Source: an uncultured archaeon
GTDB lineage: Archaea > Micrarchaeota > Micrarchaeia > Micrarchaeales > CABMGC01
Assembly (NCBI GenBank): GCA_963704435.1
Contig: OY969902.1
Location: 200,949 to 264,948, forward strand
Direction of reading: 5' to 3'
DNA: 64,000 nucleotides
Both the position numbers and the translations under genes were made by a program. Of this stretch, positions 6,803 through 32,532 are shown in pieces; position 1 is the first letter of the stretch; every line of letters begins with the position of its first letter. The notes beneath the pieces were generated by a model. It was not told where the DNA came from. It ran no database searches and worked only from the letters and a program-made list of their open reading frames with translations.

Positions 6803-6811
6803 CGCCCGGCC

Positions 6812-8815
6812 CTATCGAGGGTTCTGCCCCTCAGGGGGAGGTTGTTCCGCCGCAGGCACCTTTTTCCTCATCATCGCGTAAGCGACGACTATTATGACTA
6901 TCAGCGCCACCACGATTACCGCCGCGTATGTCATTGCGGAGCCGCTGGGCATCATTACCTGCGCCGCGCTTGCGACCGTTGTGGACGCCGTTGTCGGAAC
7001 CGTTGTTGCGACAGTGGTCGGAATTGTCGTCGCGACCGTGGTCGACACCGTCGTCGGTTGCGATACGGCGCCGACGAAGGACCAGCTTGTCTGGTCGGTG
7101 TTAGGCGTCAGGGCGTTTGTTGCGTATTTCACAGCATATGTCTGCGGCGCATAGGGGTTGGACAGATTCTTGGGATTCTGCGTTATGACCGCCAATGCTG
7201 CCTGTTTCAGGGGCATTCCGGTAGCCGTCCAAAGCGGGTTGTTCGCGTTTATTACGGCAATGGCGTTGTCGGTGGTGCTTAGCGCAGCGGCCAATGCGGA
7301 GGCGGAAGTCAAGCAATCCGCAGTAGGGTTGGAAAGGCTTGACGGAGCAATGACGCGGCATTTGCCAGTAGTCGCGTTCGGGAAGATGTTCGGATCAAAG
7401 ACCACCACCCTGACCAGGTAGGAGGGGGAATAGGTGCTGTTCTTAAGGGGGGACGCTATGTAGCTGCGGGCGGGGTTTGCGACTACTCCCTCGGGGAGTC
7501 CGGCCACTCCCTTCGTTATCCCGAGAGCCCGCTCGATTATTCCGAACACCGGCGAATAGTAATAGATCGGCTTTCCGGGGCACGCGCTCGACGAATTTCC
7601 GATTCCGCAATCGGTGGTTATTATCGTGCCGTTGTAGATCGGGTATCCCTTGGATGTGGTATAGTTGGGGAGTCCGTATATCGAAGGCCCAGCGAAGGCA
7701 GGGACTATTATCCATATTGGAAGGGCTCCCGCCAGTATATTGGCTCCGGAAGCGCTCCCGATCTCACACGTAGTGACGCCGGACGCGTTTCTGGCTTCGG
7801 TCGTGTTGTAGGGAATTGAAGCGCATGCGGTATCCGTGAAGGCGTACTCGACGAGGTTGCCGTTCTGGAAAGCTGTGGTGCTGTTCGACACTGTGGTCGC
7901 GGAAGTCAGCAGCGCCCACTTCTCTACGTTCGTGTTGCTCGCGTTGACCTTCTTCGTTGTCTGGGGAGTGACTATGGTGATATAGGTGTGGTTCAGGATG
8001 GATTTCGTCTGCGTGACATTATCCAATGCCAGCGTTGCCTGGTAGGGCATAGTATTCTGCACCAGGTATAGAACGTTGTTCCTGTTCGCGGCGACGACTG
8101 CCGAATCGGTCGTGTTGAGCGCCCTGGCGAGAGCGGCCGTGTTGTTGAGGCAGTTGTTCAGGGGGTTGGACAGGTTTGACGCGACGACTTGCGTGCACCT
8201 GCCAGTGGTCGTGTTCGGCAGCAGGTTCGGGTCGTACACGCCGATCCTCACCACGTACGCCAGGTTGGGAATATTCCCTTCGTTGTTTGGGAGCAGGGTG
8301 TCGCGGGCGGCATGCGGCAGCACCCCCTGCGGCAGTCCGAATACGCCTTTCGTTATCCCGAGCGCGGCCTCGAAGGCGCTGTGGCTGGGGGAGTAATAAC
8401 CCCTGTTGATTGATAAATTGCAGGCCGCCGGCGTCCCGTCCGCCCCGCAGCTGGTCACCACAGTCATTCCGTTATACGATGGATAGCCCTGCGCGGTCGA
8501 GTTCCAGTAGGTAAAGCCATAAATGGACGGTCCCGCGAATGACGGGACGAGCTGGTACATCGGATGCAGCCCTACCGTGTTGCTGATGCCCGCTCCTACC
8601 TCGCAGTTGGTCACCGCCGAGGCGTTCACCGCAGGGGGATATCCCAGATAAAGCGCACTGAGAGTCGATGTGCAAGCGGATGCCGGAGTGGAGCTCAGTG
8701 TCACGACCCTGCCGTTCTGGAAAGCCGTATTGCTCGCATATGCTGTGGCGGACATCGCCATCACGGCAAACAAGAAAACAGATGCAAACGCCATTAGTCC
8801 TGCGGACTTGCTCAT
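6812..8815 (-). CDS. Membrane-anchored surface glycoprotein with an internally duplicated ectodomain
   Basis: 667 aa. Features are an N-terminal signal/TM (LMAFASVFLFAVMAMSATAYA) and two homologous ~280-aa modules, each starting AFQNG..., with VP(S/A)FAGPSIYG and C-x-C patterns. There are many N-x-S/T sequons, a Thr/Val-rich linker (TTVSTTVATTIPTTVATTVPTTASTT) and a C-terminal TM plus basic tail. Confidence 0.7.
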   Translation of the reverse strand: MSKSAGLMAFASVFLFAVMAMSATAYASNTAFQNGRVVTLSSTPASACTSTLSALYLGYPPAVNASAVTNCEVGAGISNTVGLHPMYQLVPSFAGPSIYGFTYWNSTAQGYPSYNGMTVVTSCGADGTPAACNLSINRGYYSPSHSAFEAALGITKGVFGLPQGVLPHAARDTLLPNNEGNIPNLAYVVRIGVYDPNLLPNTTTGRCTQVVASNLSNPLNNCLNNTAALARALNTTDSAVVAANRNNVLYLVQNTMPYQATLALDNVTQTKSILNHTYITIVTPQTTKKVNASNTNVEKWALLTSATTVSNSTTAFQNGNLVEYAFTDTACASIPYNTTEARNASGVTTCEIGSASGANILAGALPIWIIVPAFAGPSIYGLPNYTTSKGYPIYNGTIITTDCGIGNSSSACPGKPIYYYSPVFGIIERALGITKGVAGLPEGVVANPARSYIASPLKNSTYSPSYLVRVVVFDPNIFPNATTGKCRVIAPSSLSNPTADCLTSASALAAALSTTDNAIAVINANNPLWTATGMPLKQAALAVITQNPKNLSNPYAPQTYAVKYATNALTPNTDQTSWSFVGAVSQPTTVSTTVATTIPTTVATTVPTTASTTVASAAQVMMPSGSAMTYAAVIVVALIVIIVVAYAMMRKKVPAAEQPPPEGQNPR

Positions 8816-9013
8816 GTCATACCCTTTTCAGCAATTCGCTGCGGATGTTTAAATATCTTTGCGCAAGGCAAAAACGCTGACGAAAGAATCATTTAGCATT
8901 GGGAAAGCCTGACCGCAGGATCAAAACCCAACATGCCTCGGGGCGCGAGCGATGGCCCCAAGGCAGGTCCAGGCAGGAACGCTATCGCAGAAATCGCGAT
9001 AAGCGGATCCTCT

Positions 9014-9787
9014 TCACTTCTTTCCCTTTGCCGGCTTCTTTTCTTCCTTTGCCGGCTTCTTTCCCTTCATCGCGGCGTACGCGACCACGACCACGATTAT
9101 CAGCACCACTACGATTATCGTGGAATACATCACGGCGGAGCCGCTAAACATCGTTACGGGCGCCGTGCTTGCGACCGTTGTGGGCGCAGTTGTCGGAACC
9201 GTTGTCGGAACGGTGGTCGGAATTGTCGTTGCGACCGTGGTTGCAGGCTGCGTAGAAGCCAGCAATATCAGCTTTACCACATTCGTGTTGCTCGCGTTGA
9301 CATTCTTAGTCGTATAAGAGTTGGCCGCGGTCAGGTATGTGCCATTCAGGATGGACCTTGTCTGCGTAACGTTGTACAAGGTCAACGTCGCTTGATACGG
9401 CACCTGGGATTTCGTTTTGTAGATGATGTTATTCTGGTTCGCCGCGGTAACCGCCGAGTCCGTCGTATTAAGCGCCCTAGCAAGAGCCGCGGTGTTGTTG
9501 AGGCAGTTGTTCAGGGGGTTGGACCGGTTTGATGCGACAACTTGCGTGCACCTGCCAGTGGTTACACTCGGGAATATGTTCGGGTCGTATACGCCAATCC
9601 TCACCAAATAAGTCGTGGTAAGCACATTTCCTACGTTATTTGGAAGCAGACTGTCGCGGGCGGTATTCGGCAATACCCCTTGCAGCAGCCCGTTTACGCC
9701 ATTCGTTATCCCTAGCTGGGTCTCAATAGCGCTATGGCCCGGAGAATAGTAGTTTATTTTAATGGATTGATTGCAGGCCACTGAAGT
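9014..9787 (-). pseudogene. C-terminal fragment of a single-module surface-glycoprotein paralogue, split by an IS insertion
   Basis: The translation (ACNQSIKINYYSPGHSAIETQLGITNGV...TGRCTQVVASN.SNPLNNCLNNTAALARALNTTDSAV...) aligns with the second half of each module of 6812..8815. It ends in a Thr-rich linker plus TM. The frame continues exactly into 10847..11238 once the IS and one target-duplication copy are removed. Confidence 0.8.
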
Positions 9788-10846
9788 TAGGGAGTTGACA
9801 TTTACATTCAGTCACCTCGTCAAATACAAACCCCTTCACATCACGTATTCGATCAGGTTTGCGAGGAGGCAGGAAAACACGTGAATCCTGACCTTCTTTA
9901 TGCCAACGAACCTGTTCTTTGCAAGCCCGAACAGCTCCTTCAACCTTGCAAAGAGGTGTTCGACGGCCCACCTCTTCCCATACTCCGGATCCTTCGGGTT
10001 CTCTGTTTTCAGATACTTGTTGCCGCTTCTCGGGATTACTGGAGTTAGGCCATCGTCGCGCAACTGCATCCTTATCGCTGATGCGTGGTACTGTGCATCC
10101 GCAATGTATTTTGACTGATACTGCAGTTGAAAGGTCTTCTTTACTCTGTCGTACAGCGGCCAGAACATCTTCTTGTCGTTTGTGTTCGCAGGTATGACCT
10201 CAATTGCAAGTGGCGTTTCCGTCTCGGCTTCTACGATTACATGTGGTTTATAACCGAAGAACAGTTCTTTCCCATTGCCGAGGTTTTGCATCAGTTGTTC
10301 TTTCCTTGACGGAGTTCTGTGCCCCCACCTCGCATCGCCGTCCTTGCGCGAATATGCGAAGACGTCGGTACTGTCCTGCACGATAAGTCGCAGTTGCCTT
10401 GATTTCATCCGGTCCTGCACTATCCAGTTGTGCAGTTCCGCAAACATCTCCGCATCCGACCGTTCCCGCACCTTCGAGAAGGTCGACGGATGCGGCTTCC
10501 TCGTGTAACCAAGGATCTTTCCTATCGGGTCCCTGACTAGGAACTCCGCGAGTCTTACGTCGGTAAGATTCTCATGTTGCCTTATCGCAAAGGCGACAAG
10601 ATGCTTCGCAAACTTCCTCGTATGCCCGAACTTCTGCACGATCACCTTAGCCGCAGCCCAAACTTCTATTATTTTATTCTTTAGTTCATAGATTTCCATT
10701 GTCTTCAACTCCTGGCAAGGCGGTCGATACACTGACGTATCGGCCGTCCAGGAGACTCACGACCTTATTTTCCCGACGATAAAAAGAGAAGAGAAAACCC
10801 CCGAAATCATATTGGGTGCAAAGACTTAAAATTTGTCAAGTCCCTA
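9788..10846 (-). mobile_element. IS4/IS5-superfamily insertion sequence, copy A (1059 bp)
   Basis: By manual comparison it is identical to the copies at 13680..14738 and 52466..53524. The terminal inverted repeats are TAGGGA(G/C)TTGACA. It is flanked by a perfect 8-bp direct repeat ACTGAAGT (9780-9787 and 10847-10854). Confidence 0.9.
9836..10732 (-). CDS. DDE transposase (IS4/IS5 type)
   Basis: 298 aa. It carries the Y-x2-R-x3-E-x6-K signature (YGKRWAVEHLFARLK) and upstream D residues (QDSTDVFAY, YIADAQY). The same 298-aa protein is encoded three times in the window. Confidence 0.9.
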   Translation of the reverse strand: MYRPPCQELKTMEIYELKNKIIEVWAAAKVIVQKFGHTRKFAKHLVAFAIRQHENLTDVRLAEFLVRDPIGKILGYTRKPHPSTFSKVRERSDAEMFAELHNWIVQDRMKSRQLRLIVQDSTDVFAYSRKDGDARWGHRTPSRKEQLMQNLGNGKELFFGYKPHVIVEAETETPLAIEVIPANTNDKKMFWPLYDRVKKTFQLQYQSKYIADAQYHASAIRMQLRDDGLTPVIPRSGNKYLKTENPKDPEYGKRWAVEHLFARLKELFGLAKNRFVGIKKVRIHVFSCLLANLIEYVM

Positions 10847-11238
10847 ACTGAAGTCCCGCCTGCGGGACAGTTTGTCATCAAAACCATTCCGTTATATACC
10901 GCATAGCCCTGCGCGGTCGCATTCCAGGCGGTTATGCCATAAATAGATAATCCCGCGAATGCGGGAACGAGGGTGTACAGCGGGGACATCCCAATGGTGT
11001 TGCTGATGCCAACGCCCACTTCGCAGTTGGTCACCGCCGAGGCGTTTACCGCCTGCGGATAACCCATATAGAGCGCACTGATGGTCGACGTGCATAGGGG
11101 TGATGGGGTAGAATTCAGCGCCACGACCTTGCCATTCTGGAAAGCCATGTTGCTCGCGGATACAGTGGCGGACAGTCCCATCACAGTAAACAAGAAGATT
11201 GATGCAAATGCGATTAGCCCTACTGTTTTATTATTCAT
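10847..11238 (-). pseudogene. N-terminal fragment (signal peptide plus first half-module) of the IS-split surface-glycoprotein paralogue
   Basis: MNNKTVGLIAFASIFLFTVMGLSATVSASNMAFQNGKVV...VPAFAGLSIYG...YNGMVLMTNCPAGGTS is homologous to the N-terminus of 6812..8815. The reading frame runs into the IS and stops there. The upstream ATG at 11361 in the track is probably not the real start. Confidence 0.75.
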
Positions 11239-11475
11239 TTCACAACCCTTTTTAACAATCAACTGATGATGTTTAAATATCTTTGCTTGGGCAAACCGCA
11301 GATAAGTGCAATCATCTGGCCCCAAGAGGGCTTCAATGGCCGTATGTGATGGCAATGGCATTGCCAGTGAGCTAGCATGCAGGAATGGTTTTCAATCCTT
11401 AACGTTGATTCGCCCATGCGGTGGACGCGGACCTCAAAAAATGGGAACCAGTATTTTATCCGCTGACTATCAATC

Positions 11476-13619: not shown

Positions 13620-13679
13620 CTAGCCACGTTGCTATAACTATCACCTAACGACATATTAAAGATGTGGAGGGATTCACAC

Positions 13680-14738
13680 TAGGGAGTTGACATTTACATT
13701 CAGTCACCTCGTCAAATACAAACCCCTTCACATCACGTATTCGATCAGGTTTGCGAGGAGGCAGGAAAACACGTGAATCCTGACCTTCTTTATGCCAACG
13801 AACCTGTTCTTTGCAAGCCCGAACAGCTCCTTCAACCTTGCAAAGAGGTGTTCGACGGCCCACCTCTTCCCATACTCCGGATCCTTCGGGTTCTCTGTTT
13901 TCAGATACTTGTTGCCGCTTCTCGGGATTACTGGAGTTAGGCCATCGTCGCGCAACTGCATCCTTATCGCTGATGCGTGGTACTGTGCATCCGCAATGTA
14001 TTTTGACTGATACTGCAGTTGAAAGGTCTTCTTTACTCTGTCGTACAGCGGCCAGAACATCTTCTTGTCGTTTGTGTTCGCAGGTATGACCTCAATTGCA
14101 AGTGGCGTTTCCGTCTCGGCTTCTACGATTACATGTGGTTTATAACCGAAGAACAGTTCTTTCCCATTGCCGAGGTTTTGCATCAGTTGTTCTTTCCTTG
14201 ACGGAGTTCTGTGCCCCCACCTCGCATCGCCGTCCTTGCGCGAATATGCGAAGACGTCGGTACTGTCCTGCACGATAAGTCGCAGTTGCCTTGATTTCAT
14301 CCGGTCCTGCACTATCCAGTTGTGCAGTTCCGCAAACATCTCCGCATCCGACCGTTCCCGCACCTTCGAGAAGGTCGACGGATGCGGCTTCCTCGTGTAA
14401 CCAAGGATCTTTCCTATCGGGTCCCTGACTAGGAACTCCGCGAGTCTTACGTCGGTAAGATTCTCATGTTGCCTTATCGCAAAGGCGACAAGATGCTTCG
14501 CAAACTTCCTCGTATGCCCGAACTTCTGCACGATCACCTTAGCCGCAGCCCAAACTTCTATTATTTTATTCTTTAGTTCATAGATTTCCATTGTCTTCAA
14601 CTCCTGGCAAGGCGGTCGATACACTGACGTATCGGCCGTCCAGGAGACTCACGACCTTATTTTCCCGACGATAAAAAGAGAAGAGAAAACCCCCGAAATC
14701 ATATTGGGTGCAAAGACTTAAAATTTGTCAAGTCCCTA
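13680..14738 (-). mobile_element. IS4/IS5-superfamily insertion sequence, copy B (1059 bp)
   Basis: Same sequence and ends as copy A. It is flanked by TTCACAC (13673-13679 and 14739-14745). The repeat becomes 8 bp (ATTCACAC) if the terminal A is counted with the duplication. It is inserted 60 nt upstream of the ABC ATPase start. Confidence 0.9.
13728..14624 (-). CDS. DDE transposase (IS4/IS5 type)
   Basis: The 298-aa translation is identical to 9836..10732. Confidence 0.9.
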   Translation of the reverse strand: MYRPPCQELKTMEIYELKNKIIEVWAAAKVIVQKFGHTRKFAKHLVAFAIRQHENLTDVRLAEFLVRDPIGKILGYTRKPHPSTFSKVRERSDAEMFAELHNWIVQDRMKSRQLRLIVQDSTDVFAYSRKDGDARWGHRTPSRKEQLMQNLGNGKELFFGYKPHVIVEAETETPLAIEVIPANTNDKKMFWPLYDRVKKTFQLQYQSKYIADAQYHASAIRMQLRDDGLTPVIPRSGNKYLKTENPKDPEYGKRWAVEHLFARLKELFGLAKNRFVGIKKVRIHVFSCLLANLIEYVM

Positions 14739-14809
14739 TTCACACCTCTTGTTTAAGGGCTTCTAATGGCGGGCATAAGCCTTAATGGGGAGTTGAACAA
14801 TTCGGTTTA

Positions 14810-14910
14810 CTACGCTGAGAGTGCTACCTGAGTGAATGTGCGATGCCCCACGTGTTTTTCCATGCAGTCACCGACGTCTATATGAACTGGCTGAATTTAT
14901 ATAGCTAGTT
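14810..14910. repeat. Intergenic repeat family, copy 1
   Basis: CTGAGAGTGCTACCTGAGTGAATGTGCGATGCCCCACGTGTTTTTCCATGCAGTCACCGACGTCTATAT differs from copy 2 at about 5 of 69 positions by manual alignment. The minus strand holds a micro-ORF, MEKHVGHRTFTQVALSA (14810..14863). Confidence 0.7.
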
Positions 14911-17239: not shown

Positions 17240-17415
17240 CTACAGCAAAAGTACAGTTCCCCAATTCAGCCCTGAGAGTGATACCTGACTGAATGTGCGA
17301 TGCCCTACATATTTTTCCATGCAGTCACCGACGTCTATATATAAAAGCTATCTATATATAGCTTCTGATGGAAAACGAGCGTATGAGCTACAAATCAAGA
17401 AAACGCGCATTCTAG
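17240..17415. repeat. Intergenic repeat family, copy 2, with a truncated AbrB-like gene 5' end
   Basis: It has the same core as copy 1. The minus-strand micro-ORF is MEKYVGHRTFSQVSLSGLNWGTVLLL (17240..17320). An AT-rich palindromic TATA region (CTATATATAAAAGCTATCTATATATAG) follows. Then comes ATGGAAAACGAGCGTATGAGCTAC..TAG, homologous to the first ~12 codons of the AbrB-like gene at 24653. Confidence 0.7.
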
Positions 17416-17495
17416 GGACTCTGAATTACGGCTAGGAAATAGTCTGCGAATATGCTTATTAAGGCGGAAAACCATAATACAATCTAGTGCATAAG

Positions 17496-18074
17496 ATGCC
17501 CGAGAACTCCGGCGCTATGGTGGTCTTTGTTGGTGGGCCAAGGGCATCCGGAAAAAGCGCAGTTTTGAGCGAATTGAAGGCTTCAGCGCGAGCATCAGGA
17601 ACGGAAATCGAGATAGTGCCGATGTATAGCGTCTTGTCGCAGATTGGGCGAGACCGGTACAACAAAACAATAGGGGAGATCAATGCAGAGGCCCCGCTTG
17701 CACAAAGCATACAGATCGAGATCATAAAGCGGGTGAAGACATCGCCTGCCCAGGTCGCCCTGCTAGACGGCCATTATCTGAGCCAGGATGGTAAATCTAT
17801 GACGCCAATCTACCGGACTGACCTTGCTGATTACTCTGGGCTATTATCCGCTCACATAGTTGTGACTGCGCCGCCAGAAATGATACTTGAAAGAAGGCTC
17901 AACGACGAAGATTGCGGACGGAATCTGGATATTGGACTGATAAAGACGGAACAGGATGGAGAGATTGGTGAGGCAAAGAGAATAGGCAAGCTTTATGATA
18001 CGCCTGTCTATGTTATAGAAAACGTAGATATGAAAAGAACGGTCGCCGATTTCAGGAGCTTGCTTCATGTTTGA
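17496..18074 (+). CDS. P-loop NTPase, nucleotide/nucleoside-kinase-like
   Basis: Walker A is VFVGGPRASGKSAV and a Walker B-like strand is VALLDGHY. The size (~190 aa) and layout resemble adenylate-kinase-fold enzymes. The track start at 17487 is GTG; the first ATG is at 17496. Confidence 0.6.
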   Translation: MPENSGAMVVFVGGPRASGKSAVLSELKASARASGTEIEIVPMYSVLSQIGRDRYNKTIGEINAEAPLAQSIQIEIIKRVKTSPAQVALLDGHYLSQDGKSMTPIYRTDLADYSGLLSAHIVVTAPPEMILERRLNDEDCGRNLDIGLIKTEQDGEIGEAKRIGKLYDTPVYVIENVDMKRTVADFRSLLHV

Positions 18075-19470
18075 TGAGCGGAACGCGATTGAATTCGTCC
18101 TGGGATGTGGGAAAGTGGAGGACAATCAAAAAATAGATAAGCGTAGAACTCTGCTAGTGGGGGAACGCGATATAAAAGAACTTGACGAAGGCGGCAGGGT
18201 CCACTGCGTCTCCAAAAAGACAGGACTGCAGGTAAATTCGCTAACCCACAAAGAGATCGGGCTAAGATCAAGAGGATTGGCTATTTTGGATTCAGGCAAC
18301 AAGATAGTCTACCAAGAAGACAACTCGCACCTGCAGCACTTCTTTCCCATACTTATCAGGGATTTTGCGAAATTGGCATACGAATATACCAAGTCTAACA
18401 AGCCGCTGCCCATAGTGTCAGTAGATTCGCACGATGTAATAGGCTGCGATTTTTGCTGCCAGGATTGCCTCTCCGGCGGCGGACTGCTCGTCGCGAAATC
18501 AGGCATAAACAAAGGCTTCAGCCCAGCACTGAAGAGCTACATACACATACTTTCCGAGATAGCTGAATACTCGAAGCGGAGAGGCGTAGATTCGGTAAGA
18601 TTTGAGCAGTCCGGAGAGGGAAACCCGGACCTCTATGCGCTCCGCCCAAAACTCATAAAAGAAGCTAAGAAGCGCCATAACATGCAGACGGTGTATGTGA
18701 CGACAGGAAGCCAGATGAGCGAGGAACTGGCCGAGTCTCTCGTAGATAATGCGGCGTTCATACGAATAAGCTTCCCTGGAATAGATCCGCGAACGTACGC
18801 ACTATACTCCAACCAGAAGAAATACACTTTCAACGATTCTATCGCACGGCTGAAGAAATTGATCAAGATGAGGGCCGAGGCGGGGCGTGAACAGGAATTG
18901 CTAATAGGGGCCCGGGTTGCGCTTAGGCCCGAGGAGGAGCTCCTGTACTACGACTTCGGCAAGCTTATGAAGAAGATCGGAGTGGATTGCGTACAACTGG
19001 TGAAAATTCTGGTTCCAAATGGCCTGAAATGCCGGAATTTCCCAATTTCTGCCACTGCGATACGCCAGCTGGAAAAGCTCAAGACGCTGTCTGATGAGCA
19101 CTTCTGCGTAGCCATGCCTAATGTGCTAGACTACCTGTACTATGCGAGATACATAAAGGACAGGAGTAACTTCACGGACGTGTGCTACAGTTCTAGAATT
19201 CAGCCAGTCCTGACAGGCAACGGGCTCTTCGTATGCACAAAAAGCGAGGTCATGTACTCCAAAGAATACCTTTTTGGCAGCTTCAAGGGCAAAAAGGGCG
19301 AGATAGAGCAGTTTCTCAGCAAGAAGAATGTTGACAAAGTGACCAAGAACGTGCCTGCGTCATGCTACACCTGTGGAAACATATTCGACAACCTGCTCTT
19401 TGACAAGATGGTCAAGCTCGCCCGCCAAGCCAAAGGACCGCTATCATTTTATGAGGTCATATCTTACTAA
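18067..19470 (+). CDS. Radical SAM enzyme with a C-terminal Cys-rich (SPASM/twitch-like) module
   Basis: It has a CxxxCxxC motif in IGCDFCCQDC and a SAM-binding GGE-like motif, SGEGNPDL. The C-terminus reads CYSSRIQPVL..FVC...SCYTCGNIFDNLLFD. It overlaps the upstream gene by 8 nt. Confidence 0.7.
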   Translation: MFDERNAIEFVLGCGKVEDNQKIDKRRTLLVGERDIKELDEGGRVHCVSKKTGLQVNSLTHKEIGLRSRGLAILDSGNKIVYQEDNSHLQHFFPILIRDFAKLAYEYTKSNKPLPIVSVDSHDVIGCDFCCQDCLSGGGLLVAKSGINKGFSPALKSYIHILSEIAEYSKRRGVDSVRFEQSGEGNPDLYALRPKLIKEAKKRHNMQTVYVTTGSQMSEELAESLVDNAAFIRISFPGIDPRTYALYSNQKKYTFNDSIARLKKLIKMRAEAGREQELLIGARVALRPEEELLYYDFGKLMKKIGVDCVQLVKILVPNGLKCRNFPISATAIRQLEKLKTLSDEHFCVAMPNVLDYLYYARYIKDRSNFTDVCYSSRIQPVLTGNGLFVCTKSEVMYSKEYLFGSFKGKKGEIEQFLSKKNVDKVTKNVPASCYTCGNIFDNLLFDKMVKLARQAKGPLSFYEVISY

Positions 19471-19481
19471 AAGGTCGCAAA

Positions 19482-20456
19482 ATGGTCAAACTTAAAGAAC
19501 TGGGGAAAAAGCAGGAACTCTTCGAAGAGATGCCAGCAGATAAGATGAGGGTTTTCAGCAGCCCTACGCTATGGCTTGCCTCCGGGAATGTCCTACTCCA
19601 TAGCTGGCCAAATACGCAGCCGTTCTACTTCTATCCCTTCAGTGTACTGGATTTCTTAAATAACAATCGGAGAGAGCTGAGGATTATAGATTCAAGTCGT
19701 ACGGCAGCGATAGAGGCAATTAAGAAATTGAAAGGCTCAAAGGTCCATTTTGAGGGTTTGAAACCCGACCTGATCGATTTCGCCCTAAAGTCGGGCCACA
19801 AGGTGTCCGTCATATGCGATCTGGAAGAAATAAACCCCAGCAACCTAGAGACCTTATCGTGCATAGACTTTCTTATAGTGAGGATAAACTCAGCTAATCA
19901 GGACCTGTCCAGGTTAAAAGGCATACCTAATAAGAGGCTCCTGTCTGGAATAAGAGTGTATCTGTCAAGCGATAGCAATGACTTTACTTCTTCAGCCAAA
20001 GAGGCCAAAAGACTGGGCTTCGACTTTATCCACGTGTCCAAGAGGCTCGTAGGATCAAGGCAAGCATCCTTTCCGGAAAGCCAGAAGGACAGGATTCACA
20101 ACCTGCTGGGCTTCCAGTCAAAGACGTTCAAGGTCTTGCTCCCGAAGAACCTTAACACGGTTTTTAATGAAAAATTCGCTATAAGCGATGAGTATGATAA
20201 TTCGAGCAACTGCTATTTTTCGCGATTCAGGAGAGTTTTATACAAAGACAAATTTTATCCCTGTTATACCCATTCAATAGTTGAGAAAGGAAAATTCTCT
20301 TCGGAAACGTTAACTGGATTGAGGAAAAAGTCGAAACTGTTCGGAAAGGGCTGCACGGACTGCGCATGTATCTATGAAAATGACCTATTCGAGGACATTT
20401 CCAAGAGCTCGAAAAGAATCAAGAACAAAAGGTTTTTACTTGGTTATGACTATTAA
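19482..20456 (+). CDS. Hypothetical protein sharing the Cys-rich C-terminal module of the preceding radical SAM enzyme but lacking CxxxCxxC
   Basis: 324 aa. The C-terminus CYFSRFRRVL..YPC...GCTDCACIYENDLFE is clearly homologous to the C-terminus of 18067..19470. I saw no canonical radical-SAM cluster motif in the N-terminal two-thirds. Confidence 0.6.
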   Translation: MVKLKELGKKQELFEEMPADKMRVFSSPTLWLASGNVLLHSWPNTQPFYFYPFSVLDFLNNNRRELRIIDSSRTAAIEAIKKLKGSKVHFEGLKPDLIDFALKSGHKVSVICDLEEINPSNLETLSCIDFLIVRINSANQDLSRLKGIPNKRLLSGIRVYLSSDSNDFTSSAKEAKRLGFDFIHVSKRLVGSRQASFPESQKDRIHNLLGFQSKTFKVLLPKNLNTVFNEKFAISDEYDNSSNCYFSRFRRVLYKDKFYPCYTHSIVEKGKFSSETLTGLRKKSKLFGKGCTDCACIYENDLFEDISKSSKRIKNKRFLLGYDY

Positions 20457-20491
20457 TAAATTAGGATGAGAATAGAATTTGGTGATGCGAT

Positions 20492-20947
20492 ATGGAAGAA
20501 AATGATAGGTTCGGCCTTGGGGTTTTCGTGTGCTTCTTTAACAAAGACTATTCAAAAACCCTGTTATTGTTCAGAAACGCTGAAAAAAGGGCGCGCTGGG
20601 GCGCGGATTGGGGAAATGTCGGAGGCGTAGTCGAGCTTGGAGAAACGACGGTACAGGCTGCTATAAGGGAGGTTATTGAGGAAATAGGGATAAATCTGAA
20701 GCCATCGGACCTGAGTCTCATTTACATCAAAGAGACGCTGAATTTCATTCCACACATACAGGCAGTGCATTTCGTCTACACCACCACAATGGATGAGAGC
20801 CGAAAGATTAAATTGAATAGCGAATCGGATAGGTACGAGTGGTTTGAAGTCTCAAATTTGCCGGAGAGGATGCTTGATTCAAAGAAAGATATGCTAATGT
20901 GGAGAGACCTGGCAAAGTCTGGCCGCAAGATAGCGCAGAACAAATAG
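20492..20947 (+). CDS. NUDIX hydrolase
   Basis: The Nudix box GGVVELGETTVQAAIREVIEEIGI fits GX5EX7REUXEEXGU. A Shine-Dalgarno-like GGTGAT lies 5 nt upstream of the ATG. Confidence 0.85.
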   Translation: MEENDRFGLGVFVCFFNKDYSKTLLLFRNAEKRARWGADWGNVGGVVELGETTVQAAIREVIEEIGINLKPSDLSLIYIKETLNFIPHIQAVHFVYTTTMDESRKIKLNSESDRYEWFEVSNLPERMLDSKKDMLMWRDLAKSGRKIAQNK

Positions 20948-20955
20948 GTGAGTGG

Positions 20956-21780
20956 ATGCGCGGTTTGATGCGCACTCCGATTAAATATCCCGGATCAAAG
21001 AATTATTACGTAATCAAACACGTCTTGCAAATCCTGCCGCCACATGCAGTTTTCATAGAGCCCTTTTGCGGAGGAGCTTCAATATTCTTCGCAAAGCCCA
21101 AAGCAAAGAGTAATTGGTTAAATGACATAGATGCAGAGCTAATAACCACATACAAAGTATTGAGGGACAATCCAGATGGATTGATTGAAGCTATAAATGG
21201 CGCGGAAATCTCCAAGGAGAATTATCGCCATTTCAAGATGGATTTTAAGCCTAGAAACGATCTTGAAAGAGCCCTAAGATGGCTATACTTGGACCTAAAT
21301 TCTTATCCAGATACGATAAATCTAGTGCCTAAATTCTTAAAATTTGACGATACCACTCACACAAATATGCGCAGACTTACAGAAGAGCTGCATAGGGCTT
21401 CCAGAAAGCTGCAGCATGTCGATCTGACTGTAATGGATTTTGCTCATACAATAAAAGAAGCACCGGAAGGTGCATTTCTATTTATAGACCCTCCATACTC
21501 CCTGCACAACTCCCCCTCTAAAGCTAAAAAATACCTAAACAAATTCGGAAGGAAAGGACACACAAAACTTGCAACCTTACTTAGAGACAGGTTTAACGAG
21601 ATTAAATTCATGCTTTGCTATAGGGCAGATTCCGAAGCGGAAAGCCTGTACACTATAGATGAAAAGATGTACAAAAAAGTTTTCAGATTCAAGGCAGAGC
21701 ACCCTATATTAAAAGGCAATAAATTAAAAATGAAAAAAGAAGAATATTCAGAGATGGTTCTTACGAATTATAAGATATAG
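20956..21780 (+). CDS. DNA N6-adenine methyltransferase, Dam/D12 class
   Basis: It has the N-terminal IKYPGSKNYY, the SAM-binding FIEPFCGGASIFF and the catalytic FLFIDPPY. I prefer the start at 20956 (AGGTGA 4 nt upstream, just after the NUDIX stop) over the overlapping track start at 20899. Confidence 0.85.
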   Translation: MRGLMRTPIKYPGSKNYYVIKHVLQILPPHAVFIEPFCGGASIFFAKPKAKSNWLNDIDAELITTYKVLRDNPDGLIEAINGAEISKENYRHFKMDFKPRNDLERALRWLYLDLNSYPDTINLVPKFLKFDDTTHTNMRRLTEELHRASRKLQHVDLTVMDFAHTIKEAPEGAFLFIDPPYSLHNSPSKAKKYLNKFGRKGHTKLATLLRDRFNEIKFMLCYRADSEAESLYTIDEKMYKKVFRFKAEHPILKGNKLKMKKEEYSEMVLTNYKI

Positions 21781-21797
21781 GTCATCTAGTGAGGGGT

Positions 21798-23690
21798 ATG
21801 AAATATGGGGCGGATAGGCAAGGACGCCAGAAGCATCCTATACCTAAGAAGGTCGTTAAGATTGCTGTTCTAAAGAGTGAAGGCAATCTTAGTGCCGTTT
21901 CCCCAGGGGATATCAAAACAAGGCAAAGTTTGCTTTTTCAACTGCACAAACTTCCTGATGAAGCCGTACTACACATAAGAAACTTCATGCCCCAAGTCGG
22001 TTGCCCTAATAGGTGCTCTTTTTGCTCACAAAGTTCTGGCAAAACGATCATAAAAATCTCGGATAGGGGCCTAAGAAACCTCATTTCGGCGCTCAAAACC
22101 GCTGCGATTGAAGCGTTGGCTAGAAGAGAGGGCGCGAGTATAGGCTCATTGGTAAATGACGATGGGAGCCTCAACAAGGCGTTTAAGCTTCCGGAGAAGG
22201 GTTTGATTGGCAACCGTCTAGATGGAGGAGAGAGCAGGGTGTACCCCTTTTTAGATACGGACATCTGTTCTTATTCTGACCTTTACGATTATGTAAAGTA
22301 TCTCAATGAAGATTTAGGTGTATCAATCTCGATATCCACAGTCGGATATTCCAGATACAATAAACAGCTACAGAGAATGCATGAAAAAATAATAAAGGAA
22401 TTTCCACAAGCCATAGCTAGTCTGGCATTTTCAATAACACCATATACCTATGGTTGGACAAAAGCGGCGGAAAAATCCGGCAAATACAGCAGGTCAGATT
22501 TCAATCAAGATATGGCTAATGCTATAAAAACGTACGCGCCTCTAATCGAGAGGCTAGGTGCGAGTAGGAAGACCTTCTGTGTATCTCTCCGGTTTAAACC
22601 AGAAGTGTCTGCAGAAAGCAGGCAACTTGATGAAGGTCATGTGAAAGGCCACCACTTTATCCATTCGGGACCGCATCTCCTCTTCAGTATTGCAAGGAAT
22701 GTAAACTTGGAACCTTCTGAAGTCATAGGTGTGGAAGGCAGAATACCTTTGTTCAACAATCTGCCCCAACCCTATGTCTTAGTCACTTCAGACAACCAGC
22801 TTAACACAAGAACATGGCATGCCGCTGTTTTGGAACTCATTACAAAATACGATGAAGGGCTTCTCAAAGGGAGAAAAGATATGCCCATAAGAACAAAGCA
22901 AGTCTACAAATGTGAAAACGAGGAAGGCATATACTATGCTGCAGATCCGACTTTCAAAGAAGGGGGCCATTTTGAAGCTCTACACTTCTATGCTCAGACA
23001 GAAAGGCGGAGGGTGAGCGGATACAATAATGCGGAACGCACCTTTCTGAATACCATACTCGATTTTAAAAAGGAAAAGGGAATTTCGAGACGTGATGAAT
23101 TTCCAGATGCAACGTGGGCCGATGTTAATTCGGTAGTGGAAAGGCTAACTAAAAAAGCAGTAGCTGCTGGCAACTACGATATACTTCACAGAAATCACAT
23201 CGAAAAGGATATACTGCCTATAGTGGAGTCATATGTGGAAATATTAAAGCACTCTGACCTTAGTCCCTCCTTCTTATTTCATCCTCACTTTACTGATGAT
23301 ACTGGCCAAATAGTAAATCGCGGAAGAGCCTTAGCCCAATTCCATGGTCTAGCTGGAAAAGAAGATGTACCTATAACGCCTAACGAAGAAAGAACATTTG
23401 GGCGGGCAGGGCATCCTGCCCTTAACGGAGTTGAATACAGACTCTCTCCAAATCCTGATAATGGAGTGTGCGCTAATAGTATAGCGAAAAGGAACAGTGA
23501 AAACCCACAATTAATCAAACACAGTTTAATACTAGCTCCAATAGACTACAATCCTATGATTCGATATAATGACTATGAGAGAGCCGTGGTAATAGAAGAC
23601 GTAGAATTGGTAGCAATCCCCTTCGAACAATTTTATGCCCTGAAACTACTGCCAGGCATAACCCTTAAACGACAGATATCACACAATTAG
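21798..23690 (+). CDS. Large radical SAM enzyme of unknown subfamily
   Basis: It has a CxxxCxxC motif in VGCPNRCSFCSQS. At about 630 aa, the long C-terminal region has no motif I recognise. The track start at 21789 is GTG; the first ATG is at 21798. Confidence 0.65.
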   Translation: MKYGADRQGRQKHPIPKKVVKIAVLKSEGNLSAVSPGDIKTRQSLLFQLHKLPDEAVLHIRNFMPQVGCPNRCSFCSQSSGKTIIKISDRGLRNLISALKTAAIEALARREGASIGSLVNDDGSLNKAFKLPEKGLIGNRLDGGESRVYPFLDTDICSYSDLYDYVKYLNEDLGVSISISTVGYSRYNKQLQRMHEKIIKEFPQAIASLAFSITPYTYGWTKAAEKSGKYSRSDFNQDMANAIKTYAPLIERLGASRKTFCVSLRFKPEVSAESRQLDEGHVKGHHFIHSGPHLLFSIARNVNLEPSEVIGVEGRIPLFNNLPQPYVLVTSDNQLNTRTWHAAVLELITKYDEGLLKGRKDMPIRTKQVYKCENEEGIYYAADPTFKEGGHFEALHFYAQTERRRVSGYNNAERTFLNTILDFKKEKGISRRDEFPDATWADVNSVVERLTKKAVAAGNYDILHRNHIEKDILPIVESYVEILKHSDLSPSFLFHPHFTDDTGQIVNRGRALAQFHGLAGKEDVPITPNEERTFGRAGHPALNGVEYRLSPNPDNGVCANSIAKRNSENPQLIKHSLILAPIDYNPMIRYNDYERAVVIEDVELVAIPFEQFYALKLLPGITLKRQISHN

Positions 23691-23701
23691 GCTAGATATT
23701 T

Positions 23702-24490: not shown

Positions 24491-24550
24491 TATGCAGGAT
24501 CTCTCCAAGTTTAATTTCCTTGAAGGACTATCTTAAAAATCTCTCGAAAA

Positions 24551-24652
24551 TCAGGTCTGGACTGAGAGGGCTGCCGGAGCGAATGTACGATGCCCTACGT
24601 GGTTTGCCATACATTTCACCGTTGTCTATATATAATGGCTATCTATATATAG
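24551..24652. repeat. Intergenic repeat family, copy 3 (most diverged), promoter region of the AbrB-like gene
   Basis: Sequence is CTGAGAGGGCTGCCGGAGCGAATGTACGATGCCCTACGTGGTTTGCCATACATTTCACCGTTGTCTATATATAATGGCTATCTATATATAG. The minus-strand micro-ORF is MANHVGHRTFAPAALSVQT (24551..24610). Confidence 0.65.
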
Positions 24653-24880
24653 ATGACGATGGAAAACGAGCCCGTAAGCTACCGGTCGAGGCGGACCCAC
24701 AAGCCGGTCGCCAGGGATTGCAGCAGGGTCATGCGGCTGTCGAACGGCCAGTTCCTGGTGACCGTGCCAAGGGAGATCACCAGATGGAAGCACATAGGCA
24801 AGGGCACGCTGCTCAAATGGTCCGATGCCGGACCCGGAAGGGTTATCTTGGAAGTCGTGCAGGGCCTGGACGATGCATGA
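24653..24880 (+). CDS. AbrB/SpoVT-like (MazE/VapB-type) DNA-binding protein
   Basis: 75 aa. The segment RLSNGQFLVTVPREITRWKHIGKGTLLKWSDAGPGRVILEVV matches the swapped-hairpin AbrB pattern. I prefer it over the overlapping 146-aa ORF at 24478..24918. Confidence 0.55.
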   Translation: MTMENEPVSYRSRRTHKPVARDCSRVMRLSNGQFLVTVPREITRWKHIGKGTLLKWSDAGPGRVILEVVQGLDDA

Positions 24881-24963
24881 AGAGGTGCTGGTTCAAATGC
24901 AGGACTCCTCGCCCATAAGTAGGGACATAGTTAATGCGAAGAAGAGATATGCTCTTTGGAAAA

Positions 24964-31202: not shown

Positions 31203-32393
31203 TCATCGTCTATTTTCCAACACCCCATGAACCGCATCCCTGCTCTTCGGATCGAGCTTCTCCATCAGCAGGTTGACCGCCTTCATCATGTCGTCCAGTT
31301 TCTGCCTCACCGACTCCAGCTCGCTGGCCTCCTCCACTGGGCTAACGTCCAAGGGGCTGTGGCACTTGCTGCAGTACTTGGCCGTCATCTCATTTACCTC
31401 CTGGCACTTGTAGCAGACCTTCACCGTGAGCCTCGGCTTCACAGGCTCTCCCCTGCCGATCGTTATGCCGTTCGCCTTCATCACGGCGTCGTCCACGTCC
31501 TTTCCGCTCAGGTGCACGTAGACCGCCGCCATCTGGCTCGCCCCGGTCCAGCCGAAGTACATCTTGAGCTGCTGCTCGGTCATGCTGTTCGCATATAGGC
31601 TCGCCCTGCTGTGCCTGAAGAGGTGCGGGTGTATGCGCTTCCTTATGCCCGTCCTCTCCTTCAGGTCCCCGAGCAGCTTCCTCACATTAGGGTAGTCGAA
31701 GGGATTCCCGTGGGACGTGAGTAACAGGGCTGATTCCGGCGGCAGGCCCCTGCCGCGCTCGTTGAGGTAGTTGGACAGGTACGGAACCGAGAAGACGAGC
31801 GTCACCCGCCTCTTGCCCGTCTTGCCGTCCACCATCGCGTAGCTTGGGCTTTCCGCGTTCAGGACGATGTCCCTTACCTTCAGGTTCAACAGCTCCCCTA
31901 CGCGCATCCCTGTGTCGTACAGGAGCGATATTATGGCCCTGTCCCTCTGGCTCCTGCACGCGTTTATGAGCCCGGCCACCTCGTCCTCAGTCAGGAGCTC
32001 CTCGGGCAGCTTCATGGACTCCATCTGGCCGACTTTGATCCACTTGACTATGGAAGGATAGTCTTCTGCCGAATAGAGCCACTTGTAGAAGCTCTTCAGG
32101 GTCTGCTTTATCTTCCTCAGGCTGTTCACGGCCTTGCCGCTCTTGTTGAGGTACAGGACAAGGCGCTCTATGTCTTCCTTCGTGGCCTTCTTGGCGTCCT
32201 TGCCTAGGTAGGGGAAGACGGCGCGCAGCTCCCTTATCACCCTGGCGACGGTCTGGGGCTTCCTGTTTAGCAGGCCCAGCTTCGCGCCGAACGCGAGAAC
32301 GTAGCCCCTGTTGGGCTCGGAGAGCTCCTCCTCTACCTTCCTGACCTGCATGGCCAGTATGTACTCGCCCTTGTGCAGGTAGTCCCTTTTCAT
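31203..32393 (-). CDS. Tyrosine recombinase/integrase with a C-terminal zinc-ribbon extension
   Basis: 396 aa. It has an N-terminal SAM-like core-binding domain, a catalytic region (DTGMRVGELLNLK, HPHLFRHSRASLY, AAVYVHLSG) and CYKCQ...CSKCH at the C-terminus. Its start lies 68 nt from the 3' end of tRNA-Thr. Confidence 0.85.
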   Translation of the reverse strand: MKRDYLHKGEYILAMQVRKVEEELSEPNRGYVLAFGAKLGLLNRKPQTVARVIRELRAVFPYLGKDAKKATKEDIERLVLYLNKSGKAVNSLRKIKQTLKSFYKWLYSAEDYPSIVKWIKVGQMESMKLPEELLTEDEVAGLINACRSQRDRAIISLLYDTGMRVGELLNLKVRDIVLNAESPSYAMVDGKTGKRRVTLVFSVPYLSNYLNERGRGLPPESALLLTSHGNPFDYPNVRKLLGDLKERTGIRKRIHPHLFRHSRASLYANSMTEQQLKMYFGWTGASQMAAVYVHLSGKDVDDAVMKANGITIGRGEPVKPRLTVKVCYKCQEVNEMTAKYCSKCHSPLDVSPVEEASELESVRQKLDDMMKAVNLLMEKLDPKSRDAVHGVLENRR

Positions 32394-32460
32394 AGATTTT
32401 ATGTCTGTTTCGCCCCCTTTATAGGCGCGCTGGTCAAGGGAGTCGCACTTCTGGCTGTCC

Positions 32461-32532
32461 AGCCCTGAGAGGGAATTGAACCCCCGACCTACTGCTTACA
32501 AGACAGTCGCTCTACCACTGAGCTACCAGGGC
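32461..32532 (-). tRNA. tRNA-Thr (anticodon UGU)
   Basis: Manual cloverleaf: GCCCTGG-TA-GCTC-AGTGGTA-GAGC-G-ACTGT-CTTGTAA-GCAGT-AGGTC-GGGGG-TTCAATT-CCCTC-TCAGGGC-T. It is 72 nt and CCA is not encoded. Confidence 0.85.

Follow-up and report, generated by a model that had tools for sequence, protein, structure and literature searches.

The window analysed here, 64,000 nucleotides of contig OY969902.1 from an uncultured archaeon of the Micrarchaeota, contains an island with a GC content of 0.42-0.50 across 14-32 kb, compared with ~0.60 in the flanks. At one end of the island an intact tRNA-Thr(TGT) directly adjoins a tyrosine integrase gene, the 3' end of the tRNA facing the island. The host ThrRS carries an archaeal editing domain. 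Further inside, three copies of a repeat are present where a first-pass annotation had placed them, c1 at 14815-14906, c2 at 17272-17391 and c3 at 24563-24682. The 18-mer GAATGTGCGATGCCCYAC matched three sites in the window with up to three mismatches (0.08 expected), all of them repeat copies. As described before, c1 and c2 are close to each other, differing at 5 of 69 positions as read from the alignment, and c3 is more diverged. The mutual similarity of all three copies breaks off exactly at CTGAGAG. The features of the locus are listed below; the att, arm and int(N)/int(C) designations are putative.

14739..14814: left flank of c1; P'-like arm motif, TTGTTCAACTCCCC on the minus strand, separated from the core by 14 nt
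14815..14906, plus: c1, orphan att junction; two degraded TATA boxes, small gene lost
14815-14821, plus: c1 core remnant CTGAGAG, 7 nt
14836-14848, plus: c1 arm motif ATGTGCGATGCCC
14810..14863, minus: c1 int(N) remnant, 17 codons (MEKHVGHRTFTQVALSA), then stop
Between c1 and c2: E1, a 285-aa gene and an AAA_14/DUF4143 gene
17249..17261, plus: extra arm motif copy (AAGTACAGTTCCC) in direct orientation, 6 nt left of the c2 core
17267..17280, plus: c2 att core CAGCCCTGAGAGTG, 12 nt identical to the tRNA-Thr 3' end region 32460-32471
17293..17305, plus: c2 P-arm motif ATGTGCGATGCCC
17240..17320, minus: c2 int(N) remnant MEKYVGHRTFSQVSLSG, then read-through into flanking DNA
17368..17415, plus: c2, 15 codons (MENERMSYKSRKRAF) from the 5' end of the small divergent gene, followed by a stop
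Between c2 and c3: E2, seven-gene cargo
24563..24572, plus: c3 core remnant CTGAGAGGGC, 9-10 nt
24583..24595, plus: c3 P-arm motif ATGTACGATGCCC
24551..24610, minus: c3 int(N), MANHVGHRTFAPAALSVQT and stop; fusion at the core with 32464 and downstream sequence yields a 436-codon ORF
24627-24635 and 24644-24652: two TATA boxes, TATATATAA and TATATATAG, between the divergent starts 24610 (minus) and 24659 (plus)
24659..24880, plus: gene for a small basic beta-rich protein, 73 aa (75 aa from start 24653)
Between c3 and tRNA-Thr: E3, various cargo and int(C)
31203..32393, minus: int(C), tyrosine integrase, PF00589, HxxR, C-terminal 4-Cys zinc ribbon; frame open upstream through the att core
32394..32459, minus: P' arm, coding in the int frame (LDSQKCDSLDQRAYKGGETDIKS)
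32418-32423: internal TATAAA in the P' arm, 30 nt upstream of ATG 32393
32438-32450, minus: P' arm motif AAGTGCGACTCCC, inverted relative to the P arm
32460..32473: att core at the tRNA (T-stem 3' strand, acceptor 3' strand, discriminator and 1 nt)
32461..32532, minus: intact tRNA-Thr(TGT), putative integration target (Rfam, 70.8 bits)

A proposed fourth copy at 26882 was rejected as a chance match: it has only CCTGAGAG in common with the others, without arm motif or TATA region, and this 8-mer occurs five times in the window with 3.3 expected. The element TCTGCGAAT(AT)GCTTA is indeed present at both 17443 and 26834.

A tRNA-derived core between inverted arms

The repeat core had been noted to match the 3' end of tRNA-Thr. 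This is true, and the match is longer than described. Twelve nucleotides, CAGCCCTGAGAG, are common to 17267-17278 and 32460-32471, and the match to the tRNA end comprises 14 nt in the related contig_30164. The tRNA 3' fragment is repeated directly and in the same orientation at the distal end, over 12 nt at c2, 14 nt in the related pair L124/L126 and 13 nt at the ends of the related element L136. This distal repeat is a short one, and decay has left 7 nt of it in c1 and 9-10 nt in c3. Since CTGAGAG falls within the 12-14-nt match to the tRNA-Thr 3' end, and the tRNA lies beside an integrase gene, each copy can be read as an attL-type junction.

A motif of 13-15 nt, presumably an integrase-binding arm site, is found in the window at 14836, 17249, 17293 and 24583 on the plus strand and at 32438 on the minus strand, always beside a core. 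The sole other match, at 9158 with one mismatch, is ascribed to chance. The motif forms an inverted repeat around the core, also in L122, L134 and L136, and one arm of this inverted repeat encodes HVGHRTF, the peptide core of the micro-protein suggested in the first-pass annotation. To the left of c1 the P'-like motif stands at canonical spacing to the core, its likeness to the P' arm of L130 being judged by eye; this flank, which is cut by an IS copy (13679-14738), is probably what remains of an older element. No canonical P' arm is present to the left of c2 or c3, and hence these two junctions are not simple tandem junctions.

The 18-nt arm pattern GAATGTNCGATGCCCNAC was scanned against 185,579 species genomes. 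All 108 loci obtained were chance matches, with a best extended score of 26 over ~100 nt, and none had a flanking core or TATA; against IMG/VR, three matches were found. The repeat family was followed through its proteins alone. A structured small RNA in the repeat was considered and excluded, RNAalifold predicting 0 pairs on seven copies and an Rfam scan of 13-33 kb returning only the tRNA.

The divergent small gene is intact in c3, reduced to a 15-codon stub and stop in c2, where homology to the intact copies stops near 17390-17400, and absent in c1, in agreement with the earlier description. In archaeal promoters the TATA box is centred near -26/-27, and from this geometry the two boxes of c3 would each serve one of the divergent starts. 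The label AbrB-like found no support. Pfam gave no match at E<=10 for seven homologues, PHROGs were uninformative, and a PDB profile search returned spurious LRR matches only. A weak AlphaFold (AF2) model (pLDDT 58) is all-beta with five strands; with this model as query the best Foldseek match, to Sso7d at an E-value of 0.7, is not meaningful. The small protein is probably a DNA-binding regulator or a directionality factor.

An integrase frame that continues through the core

In a Pfam scan the integrase matched PF00589 (2e-23), SAM-like N-terminal domains and a zinc ribbon, and PF16795 was not listed; HPHLFRHSRA supplies the HxxR motif. Upstream of ATG 32393 the integrase frame remains open across the P' arm, in which both other frames contain stops. 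Conceptual translation of the minus-strand ORFs of the three copies gives MEKHVGHRTFTQVALSA, MEKYVGHRTFSQVSLSGLNWGTVLLL and MANHVGHRTFAPAALSVQT, each ended by a stop, and when c1, c2 or c3 is joined to int(C) at the core, all three continue in frame to yield 436 codons with no stop. As judged from the sequence, what had been called a micro-ORF on the minus strand is int(N), the 5' end of the integrase gene separated from its body.

Uninterrupted forms of the gene occur in metagenomes. In L133 and L134 the integrase ORF extends without interruption over 439 and 445 codons (443 and 449 from an in-frame ATG further upstream), divergent from the small gene. It starts MNTT(N/S)RHRTSNP and proceeds through the core, RF(N/D)AF and YKGAK into the integrase. 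L134 also encodes a primase/polymerase-like protein and therefore resembles a small replicon. The split layout at tRNA ends is seen in L136 and in L124+L126 as well. L136 is a whole 6.7-kb element in one contig, in which the 13-nt direct repeat CCCTTCTGAGGCT marks both the tRNA end and the far end and the composite ORF has 444 codons; for L124+L126 the composite ORF has 435 codons. The gene order in L124 is AAA_14, core, small gene, FokI-like, AbiJ, CfrBI and MTase genes, integrase. It carries this other cargo and has no equivalent of the 17.4-24.5 kb block, so that the blocks are variable between related elements, a point the first-pass annotation had asked to be checked. In the empty-site comparison, the ABC genes flanking L126 are only 33% identical to those of the window, hence the host of L126 differs from that of the window. 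Among viral contigs, single-protein queries with the integrase or the small gene found no relatives, and a query with an integrase alignment found distant ones only (<=36% identity), which were left out of the analysis.

We consider it likely that each repeat copy is the distal, attL-type end of a single element family which targets the 3' end of tRNA-Thr and whose integrase gene is split across attP. Read on the plus strand, a copy would consist of the core (CTGAGAG within AGCCCTGAGAGGG), the arm motif, int(N) on the minus strand, two TATA boxes and the small gene, with int(N) providing the integrase start codon and first 16 codons. In the reconstituted attP, with the predicted junction ...GGGCATCGTACATTCGCTCCGGCAGCC-CTCTCAG-GGCTGGACAGCCAGAAGTGCGACTCCC..., the P arm motif and its inverted partner beside the integrase gene would flank the core, and in the free circular element the integrase ORF would run from the int(N) ATG across attP into the catalytic body. 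Because this ORF spans attP, integration would part int(N) and its promoter from int(C), which would then comprise 31203-32393 and the open frame upstream. As int(C) retains TATAAA ~30 nt upstream of the internal ATG, we infer that a 396-aa short integrase is probably still made from the integrated copy.

On this evidence at least three related elements appear to be stacked, in a decayed state, at one tRNA in the island. The three copies would be the leftovers of repeated integrations, followed by deletion or recombination, in the order E0 remnant, c1, E1, c2, E2, c3, E3, tRNA-Thr. Int(C) is retained in E3 only; a search of the window for further int(C) remnants found none.

Alternative readings of the copies

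Against a split gene it can be held that the integrase is a classical one (PF00589 with HxxR), outside the PF16795 SSV superfamily. In a classical type II (pNOB8-like) layout, int would start at ATG 32393 with its own promoter, attP would lie in non-coding DNA upstream, the conserved 50 nt would combine arm-type sites with the small-gene promoter, and the ATG and open frame would be incidental. L126, L212, L134 and L136 also conserve the TATAAA that precedes ATG 32393 by 30 nt, and gene callers start most database homologues at the equivalent internal ATG, so the short form alone could be the real protein. Of nine distant relatives (34-46% identity) lying beside a same-strand tRNA, eight have a stop between tRNA and int. 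Furthermore, in the apparently uninterrupted L122 a TGA closes the frame after the P' arm, before the integrase body is reached, and the core repeat is short (7-14 nt). However, apart from the TGA of L122, the frame is open and in register throughout the lineages of the close subfamily. Core and internal ATG are 24, 26, 27 or 28 codons apart in four lineages, and all indels in this interval and within int(N) are multiples of three, int(N) of L136 being one codon shorter. In ten int(N) sequences from ~7 lineages (c1-c3, L124, L118, L119, L122, L123, L133 and L134) the ATG is fixed at 14 codons before the core position, and none of the ten has a stop before the core. The uninterrupted ORFs of L133 and L134, moreover, begin at the int(N) ATG. 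A classical layout is, in our judgement, unlikely.

Codon wobble was left out of this weighing. The first-pass annotation had pointed to a synonymous difference in the Arg codon (CGC/CGT) of HVGHRTF. Third codon positions indeed show 25 extra states overall, as against 16 and 19 at the other two, and 12 as against 5 and 5 within the arm motif. The arm-motif positions concerned are variable in the P' arm as well, although they fall there on second positions of codons, and for this reason the wobble in the motif is not counted as coding evidence. The variable sites are degenerate positions of a DNA inverted repeat, which would account for the HRTF wobble in a classical layout as well, and the argument from wobble for a micro-protein was dropped. 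With third-position variation set aside, the coding case rests on frame and indel behaviour.

According to a second reading, already put forward in the first-pass annotation, a promoter module, duplicated as a whole, serves an independent micro-protein with the core HVGHRTF on one side and an AbrB-type antitoxin or regulator on the other. A conserved ATG with an open ORF of 17-26 codons is present in each copy, and the module does have its two TATA boxes placed between divergent starts; this part of the proposal stands. The free-standing micro-protein does not. Its C-terminus is different in each copy because reading continues into unrelated flanking DNA, the relatives have NVGNRTS, YKGGVTS, NKKVTS or NRHRTS in place of HVGHRTF, and the integrase ORF of L133 and L134 begins at this very start codon. 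The small gene, for its part, has no toxin partner adjoining it and no AbrB/SpoVT match. We regard this reading as very improbable.

Hardly any weight is given to an integron-like cassette array, in which the copies would be attC/attI-type sites that capture and express single cassettes: as proposed earlier, and as in integrons, the copies are sites of a tyrosine recombinase (the integrase at 31203-32393), occur repeatedly and bound blocks that differ between related elements, but no hairpin-forming attC structure is found in the site, which comes from the tRNA 3' end and recurs at the tRNA, the integrase adjoins the tRNA gene and not an attI/Pc platform, and the blocks are not promoterless single-gene cassettes but whole or decayed mobile elements, multi-gene, with genes on both strands and their own promoter regions.

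If the copies are attL-type ends of a split integrase gene, the layout may also have a regulatory side, which we put forward tentatively and with some doubt. A classical, non-SSV integrase might have independently evolved the att-inside-gene layout as a two-isoform switch, with a long form (~436 aa) in the free element and only the 396-aa form in the integrated one, the difference between the isoforms setting the direction of recombination without a separate excisionase. The extra N-terminal 40 residues would be encoded by the very attP DNA that the integrase binds. The long form would be expressed from the compact promoter with two TATA boxes, which it would share with the small divergent regulator in mutually exclusive use, and the short form from an internal leaderless promoter. 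Orphan int(N) ends in the island could form chimeric long integrases with incoming elements.

Relation to known integrases and islands

The closest counterparts are the type I 'suicidal' SSV-type archaeal integrases (SSV1, pTN3, pT26-2), reportedly described by She and colleagues in 2002 and by Badel and colleagues in 2020. There, as is likely here, attP lies inside the integrase ORF, integration at a tRNA 3' end splits the gene into bracketing int(N) and int(C), and orphan pieces of both kinds pile up in genomes. The type I arrangement is recognised at the present locus and its relatives by int(N) and int(C) reading through the core in a single frame (436, 435 and 444 codons in the composites), L122 being the exception. 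In contrast, SSV-type integrases belong to PF16795 with KxxR, have an identity block of tens of nucleotides and come from hyperthermophiles, whereas the present integrase belongs to PF00589 and has HxxR as well as a C-terminal zinc ribbon, its int(N) has only ~16 codons, the identity block is 13-14 nt, and hosts and relatives are Micrarchaeota/Marsarchaeota-type MAGs. Unlike in the SSV type, integration need not inactivate the integrase, because int(C) has lost none of the recognisable domains and retains an internal TATA and ATG, both conserved, which suggests an active short form.

A 2021 review treats the PF16795 SSV superfamily as the sole, monophyletic source of self-splitting integrases (PMC8371274). 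By the definition used there the present integrase lies outside this superfamily, as PF16795 is absent and HxxR is present. The split-gene 'suicidal' layout is thus known, and a PF00589/HxxR integrase that has it would be new. Should an attP within the first 40 codons and a retained internal start be confirmed for a PF00589/HxxR family, the layout arose more than once and can be non-suicidal.

Repeated integration and decay at tRNA genes are known for tandem islands (PMC4383910, PMC6563490). As in tRNA-targeting islands and tandem arrays (Islander, PMC4383910; PMC6563490, PMC8371274), an intact tRNA lies beside the integrase, a displaced 3' fragment forms the distal direct repeat, and one tRNA would have been reused to give stacked elements with mosaic cargo. 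Here, by contrast, the integrase body is present only in the tRNA-proximal member, and because the inner junctions are degraded (core of 7-12 nt, no canonical P' arm) the island would not be recognised as a tandem array by the Islander definition. Bacterial ICEs (ICEKp1, ICEclc Pcirc; PMC13023037) likewise place a far-end promoter upstream of int only in the circle and use another promoter when integrated. In the present case the far end would also give the start codon and 16 codons, so that the two states would yield two isoforms; in addition, the system is archaeal, with putative TATA-box promoters. It could be used as a small and testable model of how integrase expression depends on state in archaea.

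In annotating archaeal islands, we recommend treating short conserved micro-ORFs next to repeats of tRNA origin as putative int(N) stubs. As such stubs would mark element boundaries, they offer a simple means of delimiting stacked elements in poorly annotated DPANN-type or acidophilic archaeal MAGs. Finally, the defence-like and nucleotide-modifying cargo differs between relatives, and thus these elements may carry such genes from host to host.

Repeat copies and their tRNA-Thr target

The first-pass annotation had described three copies of a diverged repeat, and all three are present to the left of a tyrosine integrase gene and a tRNA gene.

14815-14906, plus strand: repeat copy c1
17272-17363 (as aligned to c1), plus strand: repeat copy c2
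24563-24682, plus strand: repeat copy c3
31203-32393, minus strand: tyrosine integrase gene, toward which the 3' end of tRNA-Thr points
32461-32532, minus strand: intact tRNA-Thr(TGT), at the right end of a low-GC stretch

At up to three mismatches, an 18-nt repeat core matched only these three sites in the window (0.08 matches expected). c1 and c2 are 85% identical over 92 nt, with the estimated 5 differences in the first 69 positions, and c3 is 82% identical to c2 across the TATA region and the opening codons of the downstream gene. The minus-strand reading frames were also found as described, as was the plus-strand gene, which is present at c3, reduced to a stub at c2 and lost from c1. A supposed fourth copy at 26882 has only CCTGAGAG in common with the repeat and lacks its remaining features; as this 8-mer occurs near chance frequency (5 occurrences in the window vs 3.3 expected), the site was ruled out as a repeat copy. 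The pattern TCTGCGAAT(AT)GCTTA, noticed earlier, does recur at 17443-17458, about 45 nt ahead of the gene that opens the block following c2, and at 26834-26847, where it is intergenic and near the chance CCTGAGAG at 26884; shuffles gave an expectation of 0 for a pattern that was picked post hoc.

The mutual similarity of c1, c2 and c3 breaks off precisely at CTGAGAG. On the plus strand the tRNA-Thr 3' end reads cCAGCCCTGAGAGGGaattgaacc, and the corresponding cores read ttCAGCCCTGAGAGtg in c2, gaCTGAGAGGGCtg in c3 and cgCTGAGAGtg in c1. This core spans the 3' strands of the T-stem and acceptor stem of tRNA-Thr as well as its discriminator. On metagenomic contig_30164 (loci L124 and L126), whose integrase is 93% identical to that of the window at the protein level and about 91% at the DNA level, 14 nt (CAGCCCTGAGAGGG) are common to the tRNA-Thr end and a site 11.4 kb away, upstream of the small gene (24659-24880, plus strand, in the window). 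When an element integrates at a tRNA 3' end, the tRNA is regenerated and the fragment that it displaces marks the opposite end of the element (PMC4383910). Judged from these matches, the repeat begins on its left with the tRNA-Thr 3' end, the signature expected of integration into a tRNA. The repeat is genuine, and its general explanation is ordinary: it represents the att-site ends of integrative elements stacked at the tRNA. Out of the ordinary is an integrase that is not of the SSV type and whose ORF runs across its own attP.

Arm motifs and the integrase reading frame

Within the window, the motif A[AT]GT[GA]CG[AG][TC][GT]CCC is found on the plus strand at 14836, 17249, 17293 and 24583 and on the minus strand at 32438; the one further match is a chance match with 1 mismatch. 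In the reconstituted attP, the copies in the P arm (at the repeat) and the P' arm (32394-32459, minus strand, beside the integrase body) form an inverted repeat lying 10-12 nt off the core on either side, and such an inverted repeat likewise surrounds the core in loci L122, L134 and L136. We infer that this arm motif is an integrase-binding site. The conserved peptide HVGHRTF, which had been proposed for the minus-strand micro-ORF, did not hold up: relatives read NVGNRTS, YKGGVTS, NKKVTS or NRHRTS, and the motif itself translates as HRTF on one side and as KCDS or RFES on the other. Nor did the argument from synonymous codons, since the P' arm varies at the corresponding positions too, and there they are second codon positions; the apparent wobble in the P arm is thus degeneracy at the DNA level. 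A search for conserved RNA structure in the repeat found none. An extra arm-motif copy at 17249-17261, separated by 6 nt from the left end of the c2 core, has a direct and not an inverted orientation; the arm motifs that flank the L124 core (9881-9893 and 9925-9937) duplicate each other exactly over 15 nt.

At the tRNA-proximal core, the frame of the micro-ORF continues for 22 more stop-free codons (LDSQKCDSLDQRAYKGGETDIKS) into the ATG at 32393, and the two alternative frames between core and ATG contain stops. When c1, c2 or c3 is joined to the integrase body, int(C), each yields a 436-codon composite ORF. Composites from the window alone could be luck; consequently, independent cases were sought. 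The small protein has few homologues (6 clusters only), and every readable small-gene locus (L117/L124, L118, L119, L122 and L123) has one upstream layout, consisting in order of the core, the arm motif, an ATG on the minus strand placed 14 codons ahead of the core position, two A/T boxes and the small gene. A tblastn search of 80 metagenomic integrase loci, with the small protein as query, yielded L133 and L134, in which the small gene is divergent from an unbroken integrase ORF of 439 and 445 codons, respectively. This ORF opens with MNTT(N/S)RHRTSNP, crosses the core and continues through RF(N/D)AF and YKGAKTQGIL(I/T)NM into the integrase body. L134 additionally encodes a primase/polymerase-like protein, as a small replicon would.

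In L136 an entire integrated element is contained in one 6.8-kb contig. One end carries a partial tRNA finishing ...GGTTCAAATCCCTTCTGAGGCT, then the P' arm and the integrase gene, and the other carries the small gene, TATA boxes, the ATG MKHKRHVTSDTQPLLRL and the identical 13-nt CCCTTCTGAGGCT; the composite ORF has 444 codons. Across lineages the core lies 24, 26, 27 or 28 codons from the internal ATG, and the detached 5' end of the gene, int(N), is shorter by one codon in L136, all length changes being multiples of three. Together, the shared layout, the uninterrupted ORFs of L133 and L134, the L136 composite and the indels in threes make an accidentally open frame very unlikely. L122, with an in-frame TGA ahead of the integrase body, is the exception to the open frame. 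On this comparative evidence, the micro-ORF is the predicted front of the integrase gene.

The integrases of L132, L133, L134 and L135 are nearly identical to each other and 46-48% identical to that of the window. Their four different cores share length and frame, each apparently being the 3' end of another tRNA, which looks like target switching through core replacement.

Integrase type and predicted expression

The integrase has a PF00589 domain with HxxR, SAM-like N-terminal domains and a C-terminal four-cysteine zinc ribbon (residues 327-344), invariant in 31 relatives and followed by a short helical tail. A zinc ribbon of this kind is unusual among tyrosine integrases. Relatives are annotated in Micrarchaeota and Marsarchaeota MAGs. 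Eight of nine distant relatives (34-46% identity) have a stop between the tRNA and the integrase gene, indicating a classical layout there. The topology of the window system, with attP within the ORF and the element enclosed between int(N) and int(C), is that of the type I "suicidal" integrases. A review of archaeal tyrosine recombinases treats these as a single monophyletic group with PF16795 and names R...KxxR...Y as the catalytic signature of the SSV1 type (PMC8371274). However, the window integrase with its PF00589, HxxR and zinc ribbon does not fit the SSV family (PF16795, KxxR), and we therefore file it as a putative type I-like enzyme outside that family.

A TATAAA lies upstream of the internal ATG, at 30 nt in the window and L136 and at 36 nt in L134, a spacing that suits leaderless or near-leaderless archaeal mRNA. 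Since no recognisable domain is missing from int(C) either, a 396-aa enzyme is probably still produced from the integrated copy. The nearest functional parallel is the state-dependent switching of int promoters in bacterial ICEs (PMC13023037). In the window system the putative switch would alter the protein N-terminus too. At c3, the divergent starts are arranged as follows.

24610, minus strand: int(N) start codon
24627-24635 and 24644-24652: TATA boxes between the divergent starts
24659, plus strand: small-gene start codon

The start codons are 48 nt apart, each about 16 nt from its near TATA box and 23-33 nt from the far one, and L134 has the same geometry. By standard archaeal promoter geometry, each gene would be served by the far box. 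The initiation complexes would then overlap, which suggests that int(N) and the small gene may be transcribed in a mutually exclusive manner.

Island structure and surroundings

The low-GC stretch (0.42-0.50 vs about 0.60) extends from about 14 kb to 32.4 kb, ending at tRNA-Thr, and its cargo includes an IS200-type transposase gene together with defence-like and nucleotide-modifying genes. The order is E0 remnant, c1, E1, c2, E2, c3, E3 and tRNA-Thr, where E0-E3 denote element blocks or remnants.

Left of c1: E0 remnant, a P'-like arm cut by an IS at 13679-14738
Between c1 and c2: E1, a 285-aa gene and an AAA_14/DUF4143 gene (matching PADLOC candidate PDC-S01)
17487-24490, plus strand: E2, seven genes (AAA_17 kinase-like, radical SAM with weak viperin similarity, unknown 324-aa, NUDIX, Dam-type methyltransferase, 633-aa radical-SAM-like, GT2 glycosyltransferase)
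From c3 to tRNA-Thr: E3, the small gene, unknown genes, Hypoth_Ymh, IS200 transposase, isochorismatase and int(C)

The E2 genes are a candidate cluster for nucleotide modification, DNA modification or defence. A search of the window for a second integrase body found none, int(C) being the sole one. Related loci bear out the suggestion that the blocks between copies are variable. Between L124 and the window, a 91% match covers AAA_14, c2 and the opening 12 small-gene codons, and the two match again over the integrase gene; L124 has nothing equivalent to 17.4-24.5 kb (E2) and carries different cargo, and further left in it the promoter and small gene occur a second time, truncated. L125 (ENA ERZ25039473 contig_80709), from another population, is 99.9% identical to window 23899-24942 through c3 and the small gene, which a frameshift lengthens to 132 aa; past 24942 it switches to tRNA-Gly(GCC) and phosphoglycerate-mutase/host genes, which marks it as a strain-level rearrangement right of the small gene.

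No canonical P' arm lies in the left flanks of c2 and c3, and at c2 the extra arm motif is present and the small gene is cut near codon 13-15; the inner junctions are thus not clean tandem junctions. In the history that we propose, after integration the repeated modules must have recombined with one another or deletions must have occurred between them.

A 1062-bp IS with a DDE_Tnp_1 transposase is present in three 100%-identical copies, at 9788-10849, at 13679-14738 on the left edge of the island, where it truncates the flank left of c1, and, inverted, at 52463-53524. The window is archaeal, its ThrRS carrying the archaea-specific editing domain. An Rfam cobalamin riboswitch match lies at 1697-1831 on the minus strand (38.6 bits vs a gathering score of 31.5); such riboswitches are uncommon in archaea. 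At 46345-46779 a repeat of about 117 nt, presumably from a repeat-containing protein, is present in four tandem copies with 68-79% identity. Within 6800-11300, the segments 6842-9726 and 8433-11286 share several direct repeats of 30-300 nt, diverged to 63-83%, which indicate paralogous gene duplications beside the IS copy.
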